Shown here: positions 15,564 to 59,465 of the stretch, in pieces
Layout: every line of letters starts with the position of its first letter
How positions within the stretch are numbered: position 1 is the first letter of the stretch
DNA from: a virus
Direction: 5' to 3' (one strand)
Length of the DNA: 64,000 bases
Virus genome (UHGV): UHGV-0275551
Position numbers and translations under genes: made by a program
Notes under the pieces: model-generated
What the model was told of the DNA's origin: nothing
What the model saw: only the letters and a program-made list of their open reading frames with translations
Databases searched by the model: none

Positions 15564-17038
15564 TATTTATTTGCCTTATTTGCTGTGCTTGGGTCTTTCG
15601 CTGAAGGTGTCTTTGCAGTACCTTCTCCAGCGGTCTTATAACCATCTCCTGAGCGGCTTTGGCTATTTGGAGAAAGCTTTTCAGATACTGGCTGAGACTC
15701 ATCAGCAGGAGGGAGACCAATATGCTCTCTAAGCTTGTTAGATAGCTCTTTGTCAACTTCCAAAGCACCTACTGCAACAGTCTTCTGAATATAAGAACCA
15801 ATTGCTTCAAGGTCTGGAGTTTCGATATCATCATATGTGATTTGTACATGTTCTTCATCGTCCCACATATTAAGAGCATAAGTCTGTGCAACTAAATCAC
15901 GGTTAATTACGTTCTTAATTTGCTTCAGCAGAATATCTACTGACATCGCTAATAAGCTTGTCTTAGAATCTGCAAGAGAGAATGAACCGTATTTTGACTG
16001 ACCCATAGCAAGAACATCTGACATAAATGCCATCATAATCTGCTTGGAATATCTGTCAATAATAGAACCTGTATCGTATGCTTTAGCACCCTGTCTAGAA
16101 ACTAATGAGAACTCAAAAATATCCTCTTTAGTATCTGGGTCGATATATCTAGGCCAGATTAAACCTGCTCTGTCGTTAGCAATCATATCATTAACAACAG
16201 TCTTGCAGTATTGTACGAAAGCTTTCTTTTCAGGTTCTGCATTTTCATCCAGATAATCTGGTGGTAAACCAATCTTTGGCATACCTACCAAGTCTCTTGA
16301 AACACCAACGGCTTCATACTCTTCAATCTGTACTTTATACTTCCACGGTACATAAGCATTAAGTAATGGTGAACGACCTTCTGGATTTCCATATTCATCG
16401 TCATACTTGAACAGCATGAATTTAGCTCGTGGAAGTTTTCTTGTTAGTGGTCTTTCTCCGAGATTAATTGCTCCAGCAATATGTGAAACATTTCTCAGAT
16501 TCTGCCTAACACCTGTAACTTTTCTAAAGTCTTCGTCAAAATACCACTTATCAAGTGTTGATTGGTTTCTGATTGGTAATTTAGCCCATCCAATTAGACC
16601 ATCATCAAATTTAGACTGGTACTTTCCTTTTTTACCCTGACGCTTCTTATAAACTTTCTCGTTAACACAGAACCCATAAGTGCAGAATGACATTACAGAA
16701 TTAATAAAATCTGCCCAATCATGCTCCATGTCATCCATTAAAGAATTAAAGAAGTCTGCTCTTTCAAGCATTTTAGGGTCTTGCTCTTTTCCCTTTGGAG
16801 GTACGAATCTCCAGTTGACTTTTCTGACAAACATCTTAATAATATTTACAGATGCTGCTACAGCAGGGTCACGCATCATTAATTGGAAAGTTTTAATACT
16901 TTCAGGGAACCTTAGTGCCTGACGAGGTTCTTCATAGATTCTTCCATTCTTAACCTTCAGACCCAAAGAACCTACTTCACCCATTCTAAATGGTGGTAAG
17001 CTTTCTTGTGTTTCTGTAATATCTGCCATTCTTCTCAC
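15563..17038 (-). CDS. portal protein
   Basis: 491-aa track ORF immediately downstream of terminase large subunit; size and position. Confidence 0.6.
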   Translation of the reverse strand: MRRMADITETQESLPPFRMGEVGSLGLKVKNGRIYEEPRQALRFPESIKTFQLMMRDPAVAASVNIIKMFVRKVNWRFVPPKGKEQDPKMLERADFFNSLMDDMEHDWADFINSVMSFCTYGFCVNEKVYKKRQGKKGKYQSKFDDGLIGWAKLPIRNQSTLDKWYFDEDFRKVTGVRQNLRNVSHIAGAINLGERPLTRKLPRAKFMLFKYDDEYGNPEGRSPLLNAYVPWKYKVQIEEYEAVGVSRDLVGMPKIGLPPDYLDENAEPEKKAFVQYCKTVVNDMIANDRAGLIWPRYIDPDTKEDIFEFSLVSRQGAKAYDTGSIIDRYSKQIMMAFMSDVLAMGQSKYGSFSLADSKTSLLAMSVDILLKQIKNVINRDLVAQTYALNMWDDEEHVQITYDDIETPDLEAIGSYIQKTVAVGALEVDKELSNKLREHIGLPPADESQPVSEKLSPNSQSRSGDGYKTAGEGTAKTPSAKDPSTANKANK

Positions 17039-50451: not shown

Positions 50452-50479
50452 AAATTAAAAAGGCTCCCGTAGGAGCCTC
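50452..50479 (-). terminator. rho-independent terminator after the NadV-like gene
   Basis: aggctcc-cgt-aggagcct hairpin followed on minus strand by TTTTAATTT. Confidence 0.55.
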
Positions 50480-50492
50480 TTATCATATACTT

Positions 50493-52274
50493 TTAAAGCT
50501 GCTTGTCAATATTATTTCGAATATCACCAAGAGTTGTGTAACCGTACTGCTCAGAGTCGCTAAAGACTAAACGTAAAGCACAAGCTGGATGTTCAAGTGC
50601 ATCTGCAAAGCTCTGGAATCCATAGCCATCTACAGCTTTCAAATTCTCACCATCCCACATAGGTGCTACACCACCAAAGGCAGATTTCTTAACACCACTA
50701 TCTGTTTTAGGGTCTTTTGCAAGCATAATCTCTTTGCCACCAATGCTTGCAAGAGTTGCTTTGACAGCAAATGCAAAGGTGTCACGAGTCATGTACTGGT
50801 AAGTGTAAGAGCCTACACCAAACACTACGTTAGAGCTTGCAAAACCCATTTCATACAGACGCTTCAGGATTTCGTTTGCACGTTCCAACGTGATAGAGTC
50901 ACCATAGATAAGTCCAATGTGCTCATCCAGTACCTTAAAACCTTTAGAGTTGATAGTTCCTCCAAAGATGTTATACAAGGTCTTAATAGCTCCATCAATC
51001 TCTGCTACAGGGCGTGTTACAACGTTTGCAGAACCAACCATATAAGCGTTCTTCAACATCACTGTATCAGCAACTTCAAAGTCTTCTCTGTCAACAACCA
51101 TTTCGTAGCCTTCTGACAGTAGCCATCCAGCAATACCATAGCTGATGTTTTCAAGCTTCATGTTCAGAACAGCATTCAGCATTGTGTCACTGGCTTCCAG
51201 ATTGCTTAGGTGCTCATAATAAGCCTTTTTAGCACACTCTAAGTGGATTGCTTTATAACCTGTGACAATGTGTACAGGGTCTCCAGAGTCAGGACGAATT
51301 ACCAGTTTGCCATCACGTTCCATAATTTCTTTACGGAGTGCTGGTAAGATTTCTGACACAGTTCTCCAGAAGTTATAAGTGTCTGAAACAACACTTGCAA
51401 TACCAGTTGGATAAGTTTCTGTTAAGAAGCGACGGAAGGTTTGCAACTCACCTTTAAAGCGTCTTTCTTCTTCAACCAACTCATTACCACCTTCCCAAGC
51501 AATGTTTGCACACATTACAGAGTGTTCAGTGGCTGGTACAGAACCACCAATATCAGAGACTGGGTAAGACTGTCCGTAGATGCGTTTAGCTGTATATACA
51601 GCAGGGAAGCTATCAGTCCCTTTAAAGCTGGTTAAGTGGCCTACAGCGTTAAATGCGTCATCAGTAAAGCCGGACATACCACGCATAGCAAAGTCATGGC
51701 ACTGATAAGGTAAATGTAAGTCATTGTCGCAAGTAAGGTCAGCCCACTTCTTACAGATGCGTTTATAATGCAATGCAATAGTTGCAATGGTACAAGCCTT
51801 CCAAATCTCAGCAGAGAAAGCATCTTCCAGATATCCCGCTACCCAATGGAAACCTGAAACAGTGTTCTGGAAGACAATCATTGGTACACGCATAGGAACA
51901 ACTGTACCTTCTTCTACAGCGTATACTTCAACTGGTAGATAACCTAAGTCGTGAAGTGCTTCCCAATGCTCTCGACCGATAGCATCTTTACCCAGAACAC
52001 CATTCATGACTTCTAAGATTTCATCAATGGCTTCTTTTTTATCACGTTCAAAGAAAGTGGCGTTCCAGTGGTCTATCAAGTAATCTTTAACGAAACGTTG
52101 AATACCAAAAGCTACTACACCATCAATTGCTAAGGGGCTGTTAAACCACTTATCACTACGTGGTGTCAGGTTCAACATAAGATATTGCGTAGCATCTGGA
52201 TACTGATATATATGTGATGCCTTGTAAGCATCTGCATTAAGACCTGCTGGTACTGCGTAAAGTGACTTACTCAT
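50493..52274 (-). CDS. nadV: nicotinamide phosphoribosyltransferase-like protein (NadV/NAMPT family)
   Basis: 593-aa track ORF; overall resemblance to NAMPT/NadV-type phosphoribosyltransferases; adjacent to Prs-like gene. Confidence 0.55.
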   Translation of the reverse strand: MSKSLYAVPAGLNADAYKASHIYQYPDATQYLMLNLTPRSDKWFNSPLAIDGVVAFGIQRFVKDYLIDHWNATFFERDKKEAIDEILEVMNGVLGKDAIGREHWEALHDLGYLPVEVYAVEEGTVVPMRVPMIVFQNTVSGFHWVAGYLEDAFSAEIWKACTIATIALHYKRICKKWADLTCDNDLHLPYQCHDFAMRGMSGFTDDAFNAVGHLTSFKGTDSFPAVYTAKRIYGQSYPVSDIGGSVPATEHSVMCANIAWEGGNELVEEERRFKGELQTFRRFLTETYPTGIASVVSDTYNFWRTVSEILPALRKEIMERDGKLVIRPDSGDPVHIVTGYKAIHLECAKKAYYEHLSNLEASDTMLNAVLNMKLENISYGIAGWLLSEGYEMVVDREDFEVADTVMLKNAYMVGSANVVTRPVAEIDGAIKTLYNIFGGTINSKGFKVLDEHIGLIYGDSITLERANEILKRLYEMGFASSNVVFGVGSYTYQYMTRDTFAFAVKATLASIGGKEIMLAKDPKTDSGVKKSAFGGVAPMWDGENLKAVDGYGFQSFADALEHPACALRLVFSDSEQYGYTTLGDIRNNIDKQL

Positions 52275-52290
52275 ATTTTATCTCTCTCTC

Positions 52291-52782
52291 TTAGTTATGT
52301 CTTGCAAACTCACCATGAAGTTCTATTCGCTTTTTAATTACAGCTTCTTTTGCTTCTTCTACCGTTTTAAATCTTCCACAAAAGTATTCTTTATGGTAAA
52401 GCATGACTCTTGCTTTGTAAAGACCTGTTTGTTTACAAAAACTTACACCCTTCACACCAGTTTTATTATTCTTGTATATACCCCTATTCCTCTGATTTTG
52501 TGACTTTGTGCTAAGTCTTAAATTATCCAACTTATTATTAGATTTATCAAGGTCTATGTGGTCTATCTCATATCCACTTGGTATCTCACCTCCAGACATA
52601 ATCCATGCAATATTATGTGCATAGTACCTCTTCTTATTTATCTGGACTTGGATATAACCCTTCTTAGACCTTGTGCCAGCCACATTACCAGCAATAGCGG
52701 TACTGCAAAGGGTTACTCTCCAAATTAATAAACCTGTATCTGGTTCATATATTAGGTATCTTTCAAAATAACCCTTATTCAT
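52291..52782 (-). CDS. HNH homing endonuclease with AP2-like DNA-binding domain
   Basis: 163 aa; YEIDHIDLDKSNNKLDNLR HNH core and KTGVKGVSFCKQTGLYKARV AP2-like segment; inserted between NadV-like and Prs-like genes. Confidence 0.6.
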   Translation of the reverse strand: MNKGYFERYLIYEPDTGLLIWRVTLCSTAIAGNVAGTRSKKGYIQVQINKKRYYAHNIAWIMSGGEIPSGYEIDHIDLDKSNNKLDNLRLSTKSQNQRNRGIYKNNKTGVKGVSFCKQTGLYKARVMLYHKEYFCGRFKTVEEAKEAVIKKRIELHGEFARHN

Positions 52783-52790
52783 ACTGTTAC

Positions 52791-53687
52791 CTAATCAATG
52801 GTTGCTACAGTAACTTGACCATAATGTGTTAAGCCACGGTCTTTAGCTTCCCCTAAAGAGTTTGTAGTGTAGATGTGGTCAATGCCATTGTCAAGAAGGT
52901 TTTCAACATCTTTAGAGAAGATACCGTGTGTTACATAGAGTTCCACACGTTTTGCACCTGCTTCACGAAGATGTTTAGCTGCTTCTATGAAGGTTCGACC
53001 ACCATCACAGATATCATCCAGAATCATGACGGTTTTATCTGTCAAATCAACATCATCAAGGATTCGCATACCAGTAATTTCACCAGTCTTAAGGTTGCGT
53101 ACTTTAGACATTGTGATATATGGTTTATCCACCTCTTTAGCAGTCTCTGCAATCTTCTTAGCAGCACCTGCATCTGGGGCTACTAAGTAATCAATCAGTG
53201 GGTCATTTGCATAGTGGACTGCAATTTCCTTTTGAGGAATACTCTGGAAGCAGTTAAACAGGTTATCTGGTACATAGCTGTGAGGGTCAACTGCACAGAC
53301 TGCACCAAATCTCATTGCATTTACCTGTTTAGCAAAAACCTTTAAAGCTGCTGCGTCGCCTTTAAACATGTGACGGTCATAACGTGCATTTGGTAAGTAG
53401 TAAAAGATGACAGTCTTTAAAGCATAATCATGAGGAATTAAATCATCAATTGCTTCTTTAGCAAGTGCCACAGCAAACAATGTATCCTTATCATAACCTT
53501 TTACAATCATAATCACATTGTTGATGGATGATGCTGCATAAGCAGTGAAATCAACAAACTCTGGCGAAAAGTGTCCACCAATCTCACCAGAAGGAAATTG
53601 GATGATGTTAAACTCTTCTTCATGAGTTCCTTTAGTTGGTGAATGAACTGTAACACGGATAGATGTTTTCATAGTTTTCTCTCTCAA
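52791..53687 (-). CDS. prs: ribose-phosphate pyrophosphokinase-like protein (Prs family)
   Basis: 298 aa; PRPP-binding loop VMILDDICDGGRTF and two PRTase-like halves. Confidence 0.6.
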   Translation of the reverse strand: MREKTMKTSIRVTVHSPTKGTHEEEFNIIQFPSGEIGGHFSPEFVDFTAYAASSINNVIMIVKGYDKDTLFAVALAKEAIDDLIPHDYALKTVIFYYLPNARYDRHMFKGDAAALKVFAKQVNAMRFGAVCAVDPHSYVPDNLFNCFQSIPQKEIAVHYANDPLIDYLVAPDAGAAKKIAETAKEVDKPYITMSKVRNLKTGEITGMRILDDVDLTDKTVMILDDICDGGRTFIEAAKHLREAGAKRVELYVTHGIFSKDVENLLDNGIDHIYTTNSLGEAKDRGLTHYGQVTVATID

Positions 53688-53962
53688 TCAAAAGTTACGT
53701 TTGTTACTGCCATTGCAGATTTGCATTTTGCAGGGTCTACAACGTGATAAAGTACACTACAGTTACCTGTACTGTCTGGTACAGGTTTAACCCATTGTTG
53801 CTTGACAGTTGGTTCGCCTAAGTCTTTGTAAGAACCATCTGTAAAATTGTTTACCATCTCAAGTGCAATTGGTTCTGGAACATGACCACGTATCATGTAC
53901 ATCTCACAACCATTACCACCTTCACTCACTAATGGTAAAATTTCCCACTTCTCTTTAGCCAT
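53684..53962 (-). CDS. hypothetical protein
   Basis: 92-aa track ORF. Confidence 0.4.
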   Translation of the reverse strand: MAKEKWEILPLVSEGGNGCEMYMIRGHVPEPIALEMVNNFTDGSYKDLGEPTVKQQWVKPVPDSTGNCSVLYHVVDPAKCKSAMAVTNVTFD

Positions 53963-54470
53963 TGTAAGTTGCCCTATAAACTGTCTCGAACTTCAACAGG
54001 AGAGATATTGCCAAATCTGTATAGTTGTTGTCAAGCACCTCTGGCATATTATTTTTGATATATTTCTCTTGCTCTTCATAGGTCATCTTAGGTGTGCTTA
54101 GAAGGTTATCCCCTTGCTTCTGGTTATCAGCTTTAGTTTGGATAAACCAGTTCGCACAGTGATGTTCACCACCTTTTGTAACAGGTTTGTGGTGGCCTAG
54201 TGTAAATGTTTGCTTACCCGTATACCTGCAAAGATTGTTCAGTGTTGCAATGGTGTTCTTCACAACACACCATTCATACAGGTTATCTATTGTGTAGTGT
54301 GGGTAATAACGGACAAGTGCTCTTTCACGGAAGTTATCACGATTCCAAAGAACCATGTGATTCGAGTTAGAAGGGTCGTATTGGTGGGAGTCAATGAACT
54401 CTTGACGTTCCTCAAAGCTGAGTCTTAGAACTGACATTGCAGCAGAACGTTTCAGATTTGACAGGTACAT
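53955..54470 (-). CDS. HNH-like nuclease, putative
   Basis: 171 aa; LGHHKPVTKGGEHHCANW...NQKQGDN fits an HH..N..N type HNH core. Confidence 0.35.
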   Translation of the reverse strand: MYLSNLKRSAAMSVLRLSFEERQEFIDSHQYDPSNSNHMVLWNRDNFRERALVRYYPHYTIDNLYEWCVVKNTIATLNNLCRYTGKQTFTLGHHKPVTKGGEHHCANWFIQTKADNQKQGDNLLSTPKMTYEEQEKYIKNNMPEVLDNNYTDLAISLLLKFETVYRATYNG

Positions 54471-55207: not shown

Positions 55208-55693
55208 TCACTCTGCTCTCCACTGACAATCACCTTGCCACCCATACTCTTTTCTCCAGAGGTTTTGGTTATCAGAACCACGATATGGTTTAACTGTTGG
55301 TTTAGATGAATCATACTTACCATCAATCACCACGTCAACATATTTCATCACATCAAGGTGAATTTTTTCATGTAACTGAAAACCTGTCCAGAGCCAGATA
55401 GATTTTTCTGGGTAAACGGTTTTAATACGTTTGCATATGTTGGTAACCTCTTGAATGTTTCTATCATCCAGAGGTTCTCCACCAAGTATTGACAGCCCAC
55501 TGATGGCATTATCATCCATTAACTTAATGATGCCATAAAGGTTTGCATAAGTGAACTCTTTACCAGCATTAAACTTCCAAGATTCCTTATTAAAGCAACC
55601 TTCACAGTGATGCTTACAACCAGCTACGAAGAGGCTTACACGAACCCCTTCACCATTAGCTGTGTCAAATGGTCGAATCTCCATGTAATTCAT
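55208..55693 (-). CDS. nrdG: anaerobic ribonucleotide reductase activating protein (radical SAM)
   Basis: 161 aa; CxxxCxxC cluster (GCKHHCEGC) near N terminus; same region as NrdD. Confidence 0.7.
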   Translation of the reverse strand: MNYMEIRPFDTANGEGVRVSLFVAGCKHHCEGCFNKESWKFNAGKEFTYANLYGIIKLMDDNAISGLSILGGEPLDDRNIQEVTNICKRIKTVYPEKSIWLWTGFQLHEKIHLDVMKYVDVVIDGKYDSSKPTVKPYRGSDNQNLWRKEYGWQGDCQWRAE

Positions 55694-56591: not shown

Positions 56592-56755
56592 TTTAACTTA
56601 CCTTTCAATTCACAATAAGAAAGTCCTAAAAAGAACCCTAGTAAGACAGAACCTATGAACAACCCAATAATACTCTCTGCCATATCTAACATCCAAATAA
56701 AAAGGTGATGTAAGTCTATCAAGACTCACACCACCATGTCAAGTTTTACATAAGG

Positions 56756-57364
56756 TTATTTTTTCTTACAATTGTCAAAATGATATCGAGTCATGTTACC
56801 AGCACCACCAGTCATACCACAATGAGGGCAAGTTTTCTTTTTCTTTGGCTTTTTTCCGGCTTCTGACATCTTCTTCCTTGTTTCTATAGACCTTTTACAA
56901 CCTTTTGATTTTGTATTGCCTATTTGAGATTCTCCTAATCGTCTTCGATGTTCTTCAGTGAAAACCCTACCTTTATTCACAATAGATAAAGCTTTCGAGT
57001 TCAAAGCTCTTACCTTTTCATAGTCTCTGGATGATATTTTCCTATCTAGGCCATCATGAGCTAACCTGTTCCATGCAAACCATAACTTATGATTGTTTGG
57101 ATACATCTTAACCAGTAATTTATGAGCTATATAATGCTCTCTAGGTGTAAGCAAAGCAATATTATCTCCACTAATTTTATCGCCACCTAGACATACCGGT
57201 ATGATATGGTGTCTTTCATAACCCTTACCTTGACATTTGTAGTATGTAAGAGGCACACCCCTTTCAGAATGTGCCTTCTTAATAATTGCATTATATATTA
57301 GTTCGTAATTCATTTGTATGCTACATAGAAACCCTATCCTTAATTTCTGCCATCTTAGCGTCAT
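56756..57364 (-). CDS. HNH homing endonuclease with C-terminal zinc ribbon
   Basis: 202-aa track ORF; ERHHIIPVCLGGDKISGDNIALLTPREHYIAHK HNH core; CPHCG motif; 5' end overlaps nrdD 3' end, so true start could be the internal ATG at 57313. Confidence 0.55.
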   Translation of the reverse strand: MTLRWQKLRIGFLCSIQMNYELIYNAIIKKAHSERGVPLTYYKCQGKGYERHHIIPVCLGGDKISGDNIALLTPREHYIAHKLLVKMYPNNHKLWFAWNRLAHDGLDRKISSRDYEKVRALNSKALSIVNKGRVFTEEHRRRLGESQIGNTKSKGCKRSIETRKKMSEAGKKPKKKKTCPHCGMTGGAGNMTRYHFDNCKKK

Positions 57365-59465
57365 TCATTCGAGACTGACCTTTAATTTTTGTGAATGACA
57401 AGTACCCGCACACCCTGTTAATCACAGAGATATCATGTGAGTGACAAACTTCACATTCTTCAACATCAGCCTTTGGCCTGTTACCACAATGTTCACAGAT
57501 TGCTAAGTCAAAGTTAAGTCCCTGATAGAAACCTTTCAACATACCTCTTGTAATACAACTTTTAAGTGCTGTTAAGTTTTCTGGGTTAGCTACTCTTACA
57601 TACTGGATTCTACCGCCTCTACAGATATGGAAGAATGGCTCTTCTAAGTCCTGCTTCTCAAATGGTGAGATGTCTGCTGCAACATTCATATGGAAACTAT
57701 TTGTAAAGTATTCCTTATCGGAAACACCTTTGATAACCCCAAACATATCTCTGAACTGTTTTAGCTGAGTCCCACATAGTGATTCTGCTGGAGTACCATA
57801 GACGGCATATAAGAAGCCATCTTCATTTTTAAACTCTTCGGTTTTCATGTTAATGTATGCCAGAACATCATATGCAAAACTATAGCTTCCAACTTCATGA
57901 AGTCGTTTACCTTCAGCAAGAACAGACAACTCATCAAGCGCAGTAACACCAAAAGAAGCTGTGAAGGACTTCACAATATCCCAACCAACCTTGTCAGTAG
58001 GTTTCTTAGTTCCTTTGTACAGACCACCTTGTGTGAACGCAAGAGGGTTAGAACTTGCTGGCATATTAGCAATCATTTCGTAGCGTTTCTTGTGGAAGCT
58101 GCGAATCATCTCTAGGTACTTATCAAGCTCTTTCCAGAAATCTAAACCATTCTCTTTAGAATACTGGTAAATCATTGGTAAGTTCAAAGATACAGCACCA
58201 ATGTTAGCACGACCAACGTAGAACTCTTCCCCATCCTCGTTAAGATATGGAGATAAGAAGGCTCTACAACCCATCGGCGAGATTACCTTGCCAGAACGCT
58301 CAAAAGCTTCTGCTACAGCACCATGACCAGATACACTTAAGAAATCTGGATACATCGCTTTAGAGCAACACTCTATAGCTTTACTGTACAGGTGGCCTTG
58401 ACAGATATTCTCATTATGTCTCTTCTGGTCATAAATATAAACCAGTTTAGGAAATACAACAGGTTTCTTGCTCTTACCTTGTCCATTCATACGAACATCT
58501 AGGAGAGTACTTGCAATCATATATTGCAGTCGGTTATCTTCATTAGACATATCTGAGTCAAGTAACCCGAATGTCAAAGTTGTAAATGCAAAATCCCCAC
58601 GGCTACAAGGTACGGTATTTAGTTTCATTTCAAGTGACTGGAAACCTTGAGTTAGTTCAATCTGTAGCTGCTCCATGACATAATTATGGTAATGTTCTTT
58701 AGGAATACCATAAGATGCTGCTTTCTCAGCATGATAGCGTAGAGACTTCTTAGCATACGGTACAAGTACCTTATCAATCTCTGCTAAAGTAAAGCCACCA
58801 AATTGCTGTGCAGTTGCTGAAAGAACTACGTCACCAATAACCTGTAAGGCCGACAGCACAGACTTTGGTTCACAATATTCGATGCCAGACATTTCAAAGC
58901 CACCTTTCAGGACTTTACCAATGTCAAACAGGCAACAGTTGATACCACCAAAGATTAGGTCTCTTAAATCATGGATATAGATAAACCCTTTTTCAATGGC
59001 TTCAAGTTCCTCTGGTGTTAAATGGTACTGTTTAAAGATTTCTTTAGTCAGATAACCACGAATAATTGAACCTTTTGTAGAAATTAAACTGCTGTCAAAG
59101 TTAGCATTCTCTCTGTCACCTAAGAAGAGTGTATCTTTGGTCTTCTGGTAGAGTTCATCCCAATTTTGAGCAACTTCTTTACGGTAATTTCTATATGTTG
59201 AGTAAGACTCATAAATCTCGTGATTAACTTCTGCCAAAGCACCTTCAACAATACTGTGAATATCATTTACCGAGATAAGCAAATTATTCTGCTTAGCGGA
59301 CTTTACCAGAATCCTCATAAATGCTGACTCAAGAGCTTGAGTAACATCTGGTGGAAGCTCTTTATAACCAACCCTATTAGCTGACTTTGTGACTGCTGCT
59401 AAAACTTTTTTGATATCAGGTTCTTCGAGTGAGCCATTCTTTTTAATAATCTGTACTTTGTTCAT
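57321..59465 (-). CDS. nrdD: anaerobic ribonucleoside-triphosphate reductase
   Basis: 714 aa; C-terminal glycyl-radical motif RVCGYLS and Cys-rich zinc ribbon CEHCGN...CEVCHSHD. Confidence 0.8.
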   Translation of the reverse strand: MNKVQIIKKNGSLEEPDIKKVLAAVTKSANRVGYKELPPDVTQALESAFMRILVKSAKQNNLLISVNDIHSIVEGALAEVNHEIYESYSTYRNYRKEVAQNWDELYQKTKDTLFLGDRENANFDSSLISTKGSIIRGYLTKEIFKQYHLTPEELEAIEKGFIYIHDLRDLIFGGINCCLFDIGKVLKGGFEMSGIEYCEPKSVLSALQVIGDVVLSATAQQFGGFTLAEIDKVLVPYAKKSLRYHAEKAASYGIPKEHYHNYVMEQLQIELTQGFQSLEMKLNTVPCSRGDFAFTTLTFGLLDSDMSNEDNRLQYMIASTLLDVRMNGQGKSKKPVVFPKLVYIYDQKRHNENICQGHLYSKAIECCSKAMYPDFLSVSGHGAVAEAFERSGKVISPMGCRAFLSPYLNEDGEEFYVGRANIGAVSLNLPMIYQYSKENGLDFWKELDKYLEMIRSFHKKRYEMIANMPASSNPLAFTQGGLYKGTKKPTDKVGWDIVKSFTASFGVTALDELSVLAEGKRLHEVGSYSFAYDVLAYINMKTEEFKNEDGFLYAVYGTPAESLCGTQLKQFRDMFGVIKGVSDKEYFTNSFHMNVAADISPFEKQDLEEPFFHICRGGRIQYVRVANPENLTALKSCITRGMLKGFYQGLNFDLAICEHCGNRPKADVEECEVCHSHDISVINRVCGYLSFTKIKGQSRMNDAKMAEIKDRVSM

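Follow-up and report, generated by a model that had tools for sequence, protein, structure and literature searches.

The nicotinamide adenine dinucleotide (NAD+) reconstitution pathway NARP1 is a phage counter-defence that was found by deleting genes 79-80, annotated prs and nampt, of the Felixounavirus Bas63, a deletion that sensitised the phage to the defence system SIR2-HerA (bioRxiv 10.1101/2024.02.11.579819). In the same study, ADP-ribose pyrophosphate (ADPR-PP) was detected solely when both genes and the defence were present, and Bas63 overcame SIR2-HerA in a ΔpncC ΔnadR host, meaning that the counter-defence was independent of host pncC and nadR. The reactions of the pathway have been demonstrated for several orthologues, in vivo for Bas63 and in vitro for SpβL1 and ICP1 (bioRxiv 10.1101/2024.02.11.579819, PMC12774641, PMC13586617). 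Here, a neighbouring pair of NAMPT/NadV-like and Prs-like genes is described in the UHGV virus genome UHGV-0275551, at positions 50493-53687 of a stretch of 64,000 nucleotides (nt) that is called the window below. There is little doubt that this Felix O1-like phage carries the NARP1 pathway at the locus, with a selfish homing-endonuclease gene in the inter-gene spacer.

When a NAD+-depleting defence (SIR2-HerA, DSR1/2, type I Thoeris, SEFIR and others) splits NAD+ into ADP-ribose (ADPR) and nicotinamide, the first enzyme, Adps, would take the β,γ-pyrophosphate from ATP and attach it to the terminal ribose of ADPR, forming ADPR-PP. The second, Namat, would then join ADPR-PP and nicotinamide into NAD+ directly, without the NMN (nicotinamide mononucleotide)-adenylyltransferase steps of the host. 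A sequence-only reading of this stretch had pointed to reports that phage NadV and Prs-like pairs rebuild NAD+ against such defences; this is right and even understated, NARP1 having been defined in the orthologous genes of Bas63.

A 4.5-kb query over the locus matched 258 phage records with 94-96% nucleotide identity, nearly all of them Felixounavirus or close relatives infecting Escherichia, Salmonella, Shigella and Citrobacter. Judged by this similarity, the window genome is a Felixounavirus, Felix O1-like and of the same genus as Bas63 (Escherichia phage JohannRWettstein, a BASEL phage, MZ501086; adps is bas63_0079 and namat bas63_0080). The locus is already known, as it belongs to the founding example's own genus and its exact gene order stands in GenBank for Felix O1. 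The novelty implied by the sequence-only reading is thus not upheld. The features of the locus are as follows.

52791..53672, minus strand: adps (predicted ADP-ribose pyrophosphokinase, PRPS-like), 293 amino acids (aa) from ATG
52783..52790, minus strand: spacer of 8 nt between the adps stop and the HNH start, GTAACAGT
52291..52782, minus strand: gene of a probable free-standing HNH homing endonuclease (HNH_3 and a weak AP2 match), 163 aa
52275..52290, minus strand: spacer of 16 nt between the HNH gene and namat, GAGAGAGAGATAAAAT, holding the namat ribosome-binding site
50493..52274, minus strand: namat (predicted nicotinamide ADP-ribose transferase, NAMPT-like), 593 aa
52989..53018, minus strand: PP loop of Adps, DDICDGGRTF, placed by a translation check
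52167..52274, minus strand: first 108 nt of namat, a polymorphic patch beside the HNH insertion site
50781..50813, minus strand: selectivity-clamp helix motif of Namat, GSYTYQYMTRD, aa 488-498, placed by a translation check
50994..51257, minus strand: inserted segment of Namat, 88 aa, aa 340-427, from alignment and model
50458..50481, minus strand: terminator-like hairpin 12 nt past the namat stop, from a consensus scan (10-bp stem, then a T run)

The open reading frame (ORF) listing shows adps, HNH and namat in this order, closely spaced and all on the minus strand at 50493-53687, with adps upstream and 516 nt in total between adps and namat. The gaps of 8 and 16 nt indicate that the HNH gene sits between the enzyme genes and interrupts neither of them. 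Since all three genes are still tightly packed and co-directional, the insertion should leave the pathway working.

In the genomes that lack the HNH gene, adps and namat are separated by a spacer of 45-46 nt holding a GGGGCTT-GAAA-AAGCCCC hairpin followed by a T run. The Bas63 hairpin (6-bp GC stem, then TTTT) lies at 16528-16572 of its record (L008:16528-16572), it has equivalents in two further records of the comparison (L002 and L010), and it is missing from the window. Its energy is -11.5 to -14.1 kcal/mol with a z-score of -1.7 to -2.3 against shuffled sequence. As a terminator it was rejected, since it is weak and does not clearly exceed what shuffled sequence gives. It may act as a weak attenuator or serve RNA stability.

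The conservation of this hairpin and T run in HNH-less genomes, together with its loss in those that carry the gene, raises the alternative that the insertion alters or impairs the operon, the missing hairpin or the 516 nt added shifting the Adps:Namat ratio and leaving NARP1 weaker or retuned. This is unlikely. Besides the weakness of the hairpin, both enzyme ORFs of the HNH-bearing genomes are intact, the spacers are of 8 and 16 nt, and namat keeps its own ribosome-binding site, GAGAGAGA, which is also present in phages without the HNH gene. Moreover, a junction query found the HNH gene at this place in 62 of 228 related records, about a quarter of the relatives, and the arrangement persists in these 62 records across three genera, Felix O1 included. 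The position of the insertion, which had been considered notable from the sequence alone, is therefore not special: the order prs-HNH-nadV is annotated in Felix O1, the type phage, and occurs in about a quarter of the relatives.

The two enzymes

The NAMPT/NadV family of the 593-aa ORF, as first proposed, was borne out by its coordinates and by matches to Pfam NAPRTase (5.3e-35) and NAMPT_N, to NCBIfam PRK09198 (470.8 bits for a cut-off of 405) and to PHROG 448 (1.3e-202). The protein is 97% identical to Bas63 gp80. Its best solved relative by sequence is SpβL1 Namat (9w5w/9w5x, E 5e-128), and in a fold search with its AF2 (AlphaFold2) model (mean pLDDT, the per-residue model confidence, 93.5) 9w5x again ranked first, with a TM (template modelling) score of 0.95. 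The core residues are kept, namely D15, Y17, F195, R198, D221, A248, the catalytic H251, R327, D329, G458 and D459; the SpβL1 counterparts of D15 to D329 are, in the same order, D13', Y15', F189, R192, D215, A242, the catalytic His, R306 and D308. All the listed nicotinamide and NAD+ contacts of the SpβL1 enzyme map to identical or conservative residues, S190 being replaced by A196.

Namat enzymes are set apart by the consensus GSXΦXΦXΦTRD, a motif that Nampt lacks (PMC12774641). The clamp sequence of the window protein, GSYTYQYMTRD (G488-S-Y490...Y494-x-T496-R-D498), fits this consensus, and the motif is found in all 37 aligned homologues. For the selectivity-clamp loop (SCL), the third position is expected to be R, K or Y, with a stacking residue following if it is K or Y; the loop of the window protein is TPRSDKWF, with K42 followed by W43, identical to that of Bas63. 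The genomic association of Namat is present as well, an Adps gene lying within 10 genes. From orthology and these conserved residues, we infer that the window Namat prefers the reaction of ADPR-PP and nicotinamide to NAD+ over that of PRPP (phosphoribosyl pyrophosphate) to NMN.

The Prs-like ORF had been listed as 52791-53687, 298 aa from a TTG. The family assignment stands, with matches to Pribosyltran (1.1e-11) and Pribosyl_synth (4.5e-10) in Pfam, as expected for the two-domain PRPS-like fold, and to PHROG 619 (3.1e-96); the start does not, for the TTG falls inside the tail of the upstream gene. The adps start is most likely the ATG at 53672, giving 293 aa, as the ribosome-binding site GAGAGAGA precedes it and all annotated orthologues have this start. 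The protein is 79% identical to Bas63 gp79 overall and 97% over aa 181-293. It shares 36% identity (113 bits) with ICP1 Adps and scores at most 65 bits against any solved canonical Prs. No solved Adps structure was found in the PDB copy searched, where the best match was an archaeal Prs (5.4e-17).

Adps residues were mapped from the list in PMC13586617 by alignment to the ICP1 Adps sequence taken from the phage record. The catalytic lysine of the β-hairpin, K185 in ICP1 (K162 in SpβL1), corresponds to K190, within SKVRNLKTGE, and the acceptor residues R87, H121, D161, D212, D213 and D216 of ICP1 correspond to R97, H131, D167, D219, D220 and D223. The PRPP loop quoted in the sequence-only reading, VMILDDICDGGRTF, is present, as DDICDGGRTF. 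Its DDICDG is identical to D212-G217 of ICP1 Adps, described as the donor-binding loop (PMC13586617), and the next three residues are GRT against AAS in ICP1. In the ATP lid, F221 of ICP1 maps to F228 here, and F223 to E230.

The profiles also separate this protein from canonical Prs. The Prs subfamily and equivalog models (PRK-derived NCBIfam) gave scores far under their cut-offs (85.1 against 297 and 58.7 against 438 bits), and the broad TIGR01251 was barely passed (114.6 against 113), with a match that stops at profile position 289 of 309. By profile and pairwise bit scores, Adps thus lies outside the Prs equivalog models, without the C-terminal α11-α12 module. Given its orthology and conserved residues, the window Adps is expected to convert ADPR and ATP to ADPR-PP and AMP. 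The comparison of profiles and structures that had been proposed as a check of canonical NadV and Prs versus ADPR-using variants comes out for the latter, as both proteins carry ADPR-using signatures. A loss of catalytic residues, named beforehand as an observation that would speak against the proposal, was not seen; the mapped active-site residues of Namat and the catalytic and acceptor residues of Adps are all kept.

It is very unlikely that the pair performs canonical salvage, in which the Prs-like enzyme would turn ribose-5-phosphate into PRPP, the NadV-like one would combine PRPP with nicotinamide to NMN, and host NadR or PncC would complete NAD+. The names given by Pfam, NCBIfam and GenBank are all Prs and NadV, and SpβL1 Namat keeps about half of the PRPP-to-NMN activity of human Nampt in vitro (PMC12774641), which leaves a minor canonical flux possible. 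Yet Bas63 beats SIR2-HerA without host pncC and nadR, and its ADPR-PP needs genes 79-80. SpβL1 Adps formed product from ADPR and ATP and none in the assay meant for Prs activity, for which the alternative substrate is ribose-5-phosphate in the figure legend and PRPP in the text (bioRxiv 10.1101/2024.02.11.579819). The adenine-clamp motif of the window Namat, not found in Nampt enzymes, and the low scores of Adps against the Prs equivalog models point in the same direction.

Two alleles of the Adps N-terminal domain (53133-53672, minus strand, aa 1-180), about 68% identical in amino acids, were observed within the genus. One is shared by the window, wV8 and EC6, and the other belongs to Bas63; identity rises to about 97% in the C-terminal catalytic half. 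From tblastn identity bands, about 155 records seem to carry the window type and about 90 the Bas63 type. A tie between this allele and the HNH gene was ruled out, as wV8 and EC6 have no HNH gene and carry the window-type Adps (97% identity).

The sole undescribed detail at this locus is an orphan subdomain in the Ounavirinae-type Namat. The segment aa 340-427 (88 aa, about 78 residues more than in SpβL1 Namat) directly follows the catalytic RPDSGDP strand. In the alignment, SpβL1 Namat, HdNadV, human NAMPT and the enterobacterial homologues of about 496 aa lack it, and it is present in all homologues of 590-610 aa from contigs of about 84-92 kb, down to 46% identity. It is modelled as a compact α/β subdomain (pLDDT 93-96 in the full protein and 90.7 alone), no structural relative of which was found in PDB or BFVD, and it is the most divergent and fastest-evolving stretch of namat. 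The Namat structure paper makes no mention of an insertion of this type (PMC12774641). One tentative and rather unlikely idea is that this segment, confined to Ounavirinae-type phages, is a functional add-on, for example a docking or regulatory module to Adps or a host factor that channels the labile ADPR-PP; alternatively, it would be a neutral decoration. The Namat of SpβL1, in which this segment is missing, does not bind Adps. A second Namat insertion, of about 15 aa, was seen at aa ~259-273.

The homologues of about 496 aa come from chromosomes of Klebsiella, Cronobacter, Erwinia, Kosakonia and other Enterobacterales, where they are labelled nicotinate phosphoribosyltransferase (for example proteins P0070, P0072 and P0087). 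They bear the Namat clamp GS[YF]TYQYNTRD and, on this motif, may be bacterial or prophage NARP1 Namat rather than NadV. Bacterial NARP1 homologues have been reported, in line with these clamp-bearing proteins (PMC12774641).

The gene between adps and namat

The middle gene had been called an HNH-AP2 homing endonuclease. The endonuclease part holds, with Pfam HNH_3 (2e-19 across 46 of 46 profile positions), PHROG 99 (5e-68) and a PADLOC HEase match, and the HNH motif EIDHID...NN...NL...N is intact; the AP2 match is sub-threshold (20.9 bits for a Pfam cut-off of 33.3). With Pfam, PHROG and PADLOC, no Macro or RyR domain was found in the middle gene or in the four flanking small ORFs (92, 171, 111 and 58 aa), which indicates that the middle gene is not an Adpp- or RyDEP-type extension of the pathway. 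As ADPR-handling or defence proteins, both the middle gene and its small neighbours were rejected in these searches, the former matching homing endonucleases alone and the latter nothing.

The junctions that carry the gene have identical boundaries, with the adps stop on one side and the namat ribosome-binding site on the other; the gene stands there in place of the spacer. It is absent from Bas63, EC6 and wV8 in the junction comparison. By tblastn, homologues with at least 80% amino acid identity were found in 61 records, all of this lineage; the others reach at most about 43% and are scattered in unrelated phages. In IMG/VR, the six close copies of the gene all lie between adps and namat. 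No paralogue was found elsewhere in the window by tblastn, so that the gene is the single copy of its type.

The gene is also less diverged than its surroundings. In phiSUSP1 and Moogle, members of other genera of the Ounavirinae, it is 90-91% identical in nucleotides to that of the window, against 76-77% for adps and namat, and synonymous divergence (dS) is 0.39 for the HNH gene versus 1.30 for adps. Its ratio of nonsynonymous to synonymous divergence (dN/dS) is 0.11-0.21, and every copy examined is intact at 163 aa. Presence/absence polymorphism, site specificity and lower divergence than the flanks together support a free-standing, site-specific and selfish homing endonuclease that would not be a component of NARP1.

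Over its first 120 nt, namat of phiSUSP1 and Moogle is 88% identical to that of the window, and over the patch of the first 108 nt about 92%, compared with about 76% elsewhere in the gene. Against Bas63 and wV8, the first 108 nt are 77% identical and the rest of the gene 94-100%. In ten aligned junctions, all seven with the HNH gene share one namat 5' allele with G at nucleotide 5 (Ser2); the three without it have C at this position (Thr2), two of them with a very different first 100 nt (77% identical). The sample behind mobility and co-conversion is small and its members are related. Such similarity at the 5' end is the mark to be expected of a co-conversion-like tract. As the population patterns suggest, the HNH enzyme would most likely cut HNH-less genomes at or near the adps-namat junction in mixed infection, and recombinational repair would then copy the HNH gene in, dragging along the first ~100 nt of namat.

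That the middle gene would instead be a working accessory of the pathway, like Adpp or RyDEP, is the least probable alternative of all: genes within NARP1 operons can extend the pathway (10.64898/2026.01.28.702374, 10.64898/2026.05.28.727677) and the HNH ORF is intact and under purifying selection, but it encodes an HNH_3 nuclease with a weak DNA-binding AP2 match and homing-endonuclease profiles in place of a Macro or RyR domain, it is missing in about three quarters of the relatives, including Bas63 with its functioning NARP1, and its much lower divergence than the flanks across genera speaks for mobility and not for co-evolution with the enzymes.

Several points weigh against reading the locus as a working NARP1 pathway with a selfish insert. 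The enzyme roles in this phage are predicted from orthology and conserved residues, and aa 1-180 of Adps are just 68% identical to the experimentally tested Bas63 protein. Within this part, the adenine-contact residue F92 of ICP1 aligns with M102 (F103 being adjacent), and the equivalent of ICP1 F18' is ambiguous between F26 (QFPSGE) and F35 (HFSPEF), MAFFT and phmmer disagreeing at the N-terminus. Moreover, the HNH-bearing layout lacks the hairpin of the tested Bas63 arrangement, so that relative expression could differ. Finally, endonuclease activity, target site and homing are drawn solely from comparative patterns in a small and related set of sequences.

Variation in homing-endonuclease content among Felix O1-like phages has already been noted (PMC4837284). 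In the window, a second homing-endonuclease-like ORF of 202 aa (56756-57364, minus strand) shows a NUMOD3 motif and a weak match to an HNH-type DNase; it lies in a segment of about 570 nt (56753-57321) for which Bas63 shows no equivalent at the same place. In Bas63, nrdD (L008:9530-12416) is annotated as a two-piece joined coding sequence, split by a homing-endonuclease gene. The window differs from Bas63 near nrdD/nrdG, with just 84% identity at 57322-57500, and these differences indicate a genus that is mosaic in its homing-endonuclease content.

Neighbouring genes and significance

NrdG, the anaerobic ribonucleotide reductase activase, is encoded upstream (55208-55693), and homologues of rIIA/rIIB lie downstream; Bas63 and Felix O1 have the same neighbours. 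A pattern scan found terminator-like hairpins at 54510-54488 and 50481-50458 on the minus strand, which may bracket a predicted five-gene unit made of the 171-aa ORF, the 92-aa ORF, adps, HNH and namat. The scan also gave, likewise as a pattern match, a strong promoter-like site (TTGACA-16-TATGAT) that extends over the end of namat. The conserved 171-aa ORF (53955-54470, minus strand), two genes upstream of adps, belongs to PHROG 3500 and has an HHxxxxxGGxHH-like motif as well as a weak HNH-endonuclease-like match (PHROG 2214, 1.4e-06). It was found in all relatives examined (Bas63_0077, Felix O1 ORF125), which indicates a fixed rather than a mobile gene.

The value of the finding is mainly confirmatory. 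The phage carries an intact copy of a well-characterised counter-defence and should resist NAD+-depleting systems such as SIR2-HerA, DSR1/2 and type I Thoeris. Resistance to aRES is not expected from the published logic, since an Adpp phosphatase is missing. NARP1 content is useful when judging Felix O1-like phages for therapy or biocontrol. The small addition made here is that, in three genera of the Ounavirinae, a site-specific, selfish endonuclease appears to have settled in the spacer between adps and namat. The HNH gene apparently carries the 5' end of namat along and may thereby help to shuffle counter-defence alleles among co-infecting phages.

Comparison with described systems

The closest described locus is that of Bas63, which is of the same genus and has the same neighbourhood (nrdG ... 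adps, namat ... rIIA, rIIB), the same protein lengths (293 and 593 aa) and identical sequences of the selectivity-clamp loop and helix. It differs by having a hairpin spacer of 45 nt in place of the HNH gene, which in the window is 492 nt long and sets adps and namat 516 nt apart, and by the other alleles of the Adps N-terminus (68% in amino acids) and of the first ~100 nt of namat (77% in nucleotides). An extra small gene (0081) also lies downstream of namat in Bas63. The match is closer still in layout for Felix O1 (NC_005282), in which prs (ORF127), an HNH endonuclease gene (ORF128) and nadV follow each other with matching lengths of 882, 492 and 1782 nt. Its HNH gene is of the same lineage as that of the window (dN 0.053, dS 0.38), and the two loci differ in sequence divergence only. 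The GenBank annotation of Felix O1 predates NARP1 and states canonical pyridine-nucleotide salvage.

With SpβL1 Namat and ICP1 Adps, the window proteins share the catalytic core, the selectivity clamp, the catalytic lysine, the acceptor residues and the DDICDG loop. Unlike SpβL1 Namat, the window Namat has the insertions of ~15 aa and ~78 aa, the larger one forming a separate subdomain; unlike ICP1 Adps, the window enzyme has GRT and not AAS at the tail of the PP loop, and the equivalents of F92 and F223 are not cleanly conserved.

A third gene inside an adps/namat locus is also known from NARP1-AP (Adps-Adpp-Namat, Vibrio phage Gary) and from the RyDEP locus of phage DyoEdafos. The insert is a Macro-domain ADPR-1''-phosphatase in NARP1-AP and a RyR-domain glycosidase of cyclic ADPR (cADPR) in RyDEP, whereas that of the window is an HNH nuclease without an ADPR-related domain. 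As in NARP2 and the NadV-NatV pair of KVP40, a NAMPT-family enzyme would be used by the phage to restore NAD+. However, the Nampt of NARP2 uses PRPP and needs an Nmnat partner, while the window enzyme has the adenine clamp of Namat and an adjoining Adps. Membership of NARP2 (Nampt and Nmnat) was rejected on this clamp motif and the adjacent Adps, an Nmnat gene not having been searched for window-wide.

In T4-like phages, free-standing homing endonucleases separate genes that serve a common pathway, as mobE does for nrdA and nrdB. The window resembles these cases by its intergenic gene of the HNH family, by presence/absence polymorphism and by flank differences consistent with target-site immunity and co-conversion. 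What sets it apart from them is the target, here the adps-namat junction of Ounavirinae, at which cleavage is predicted.

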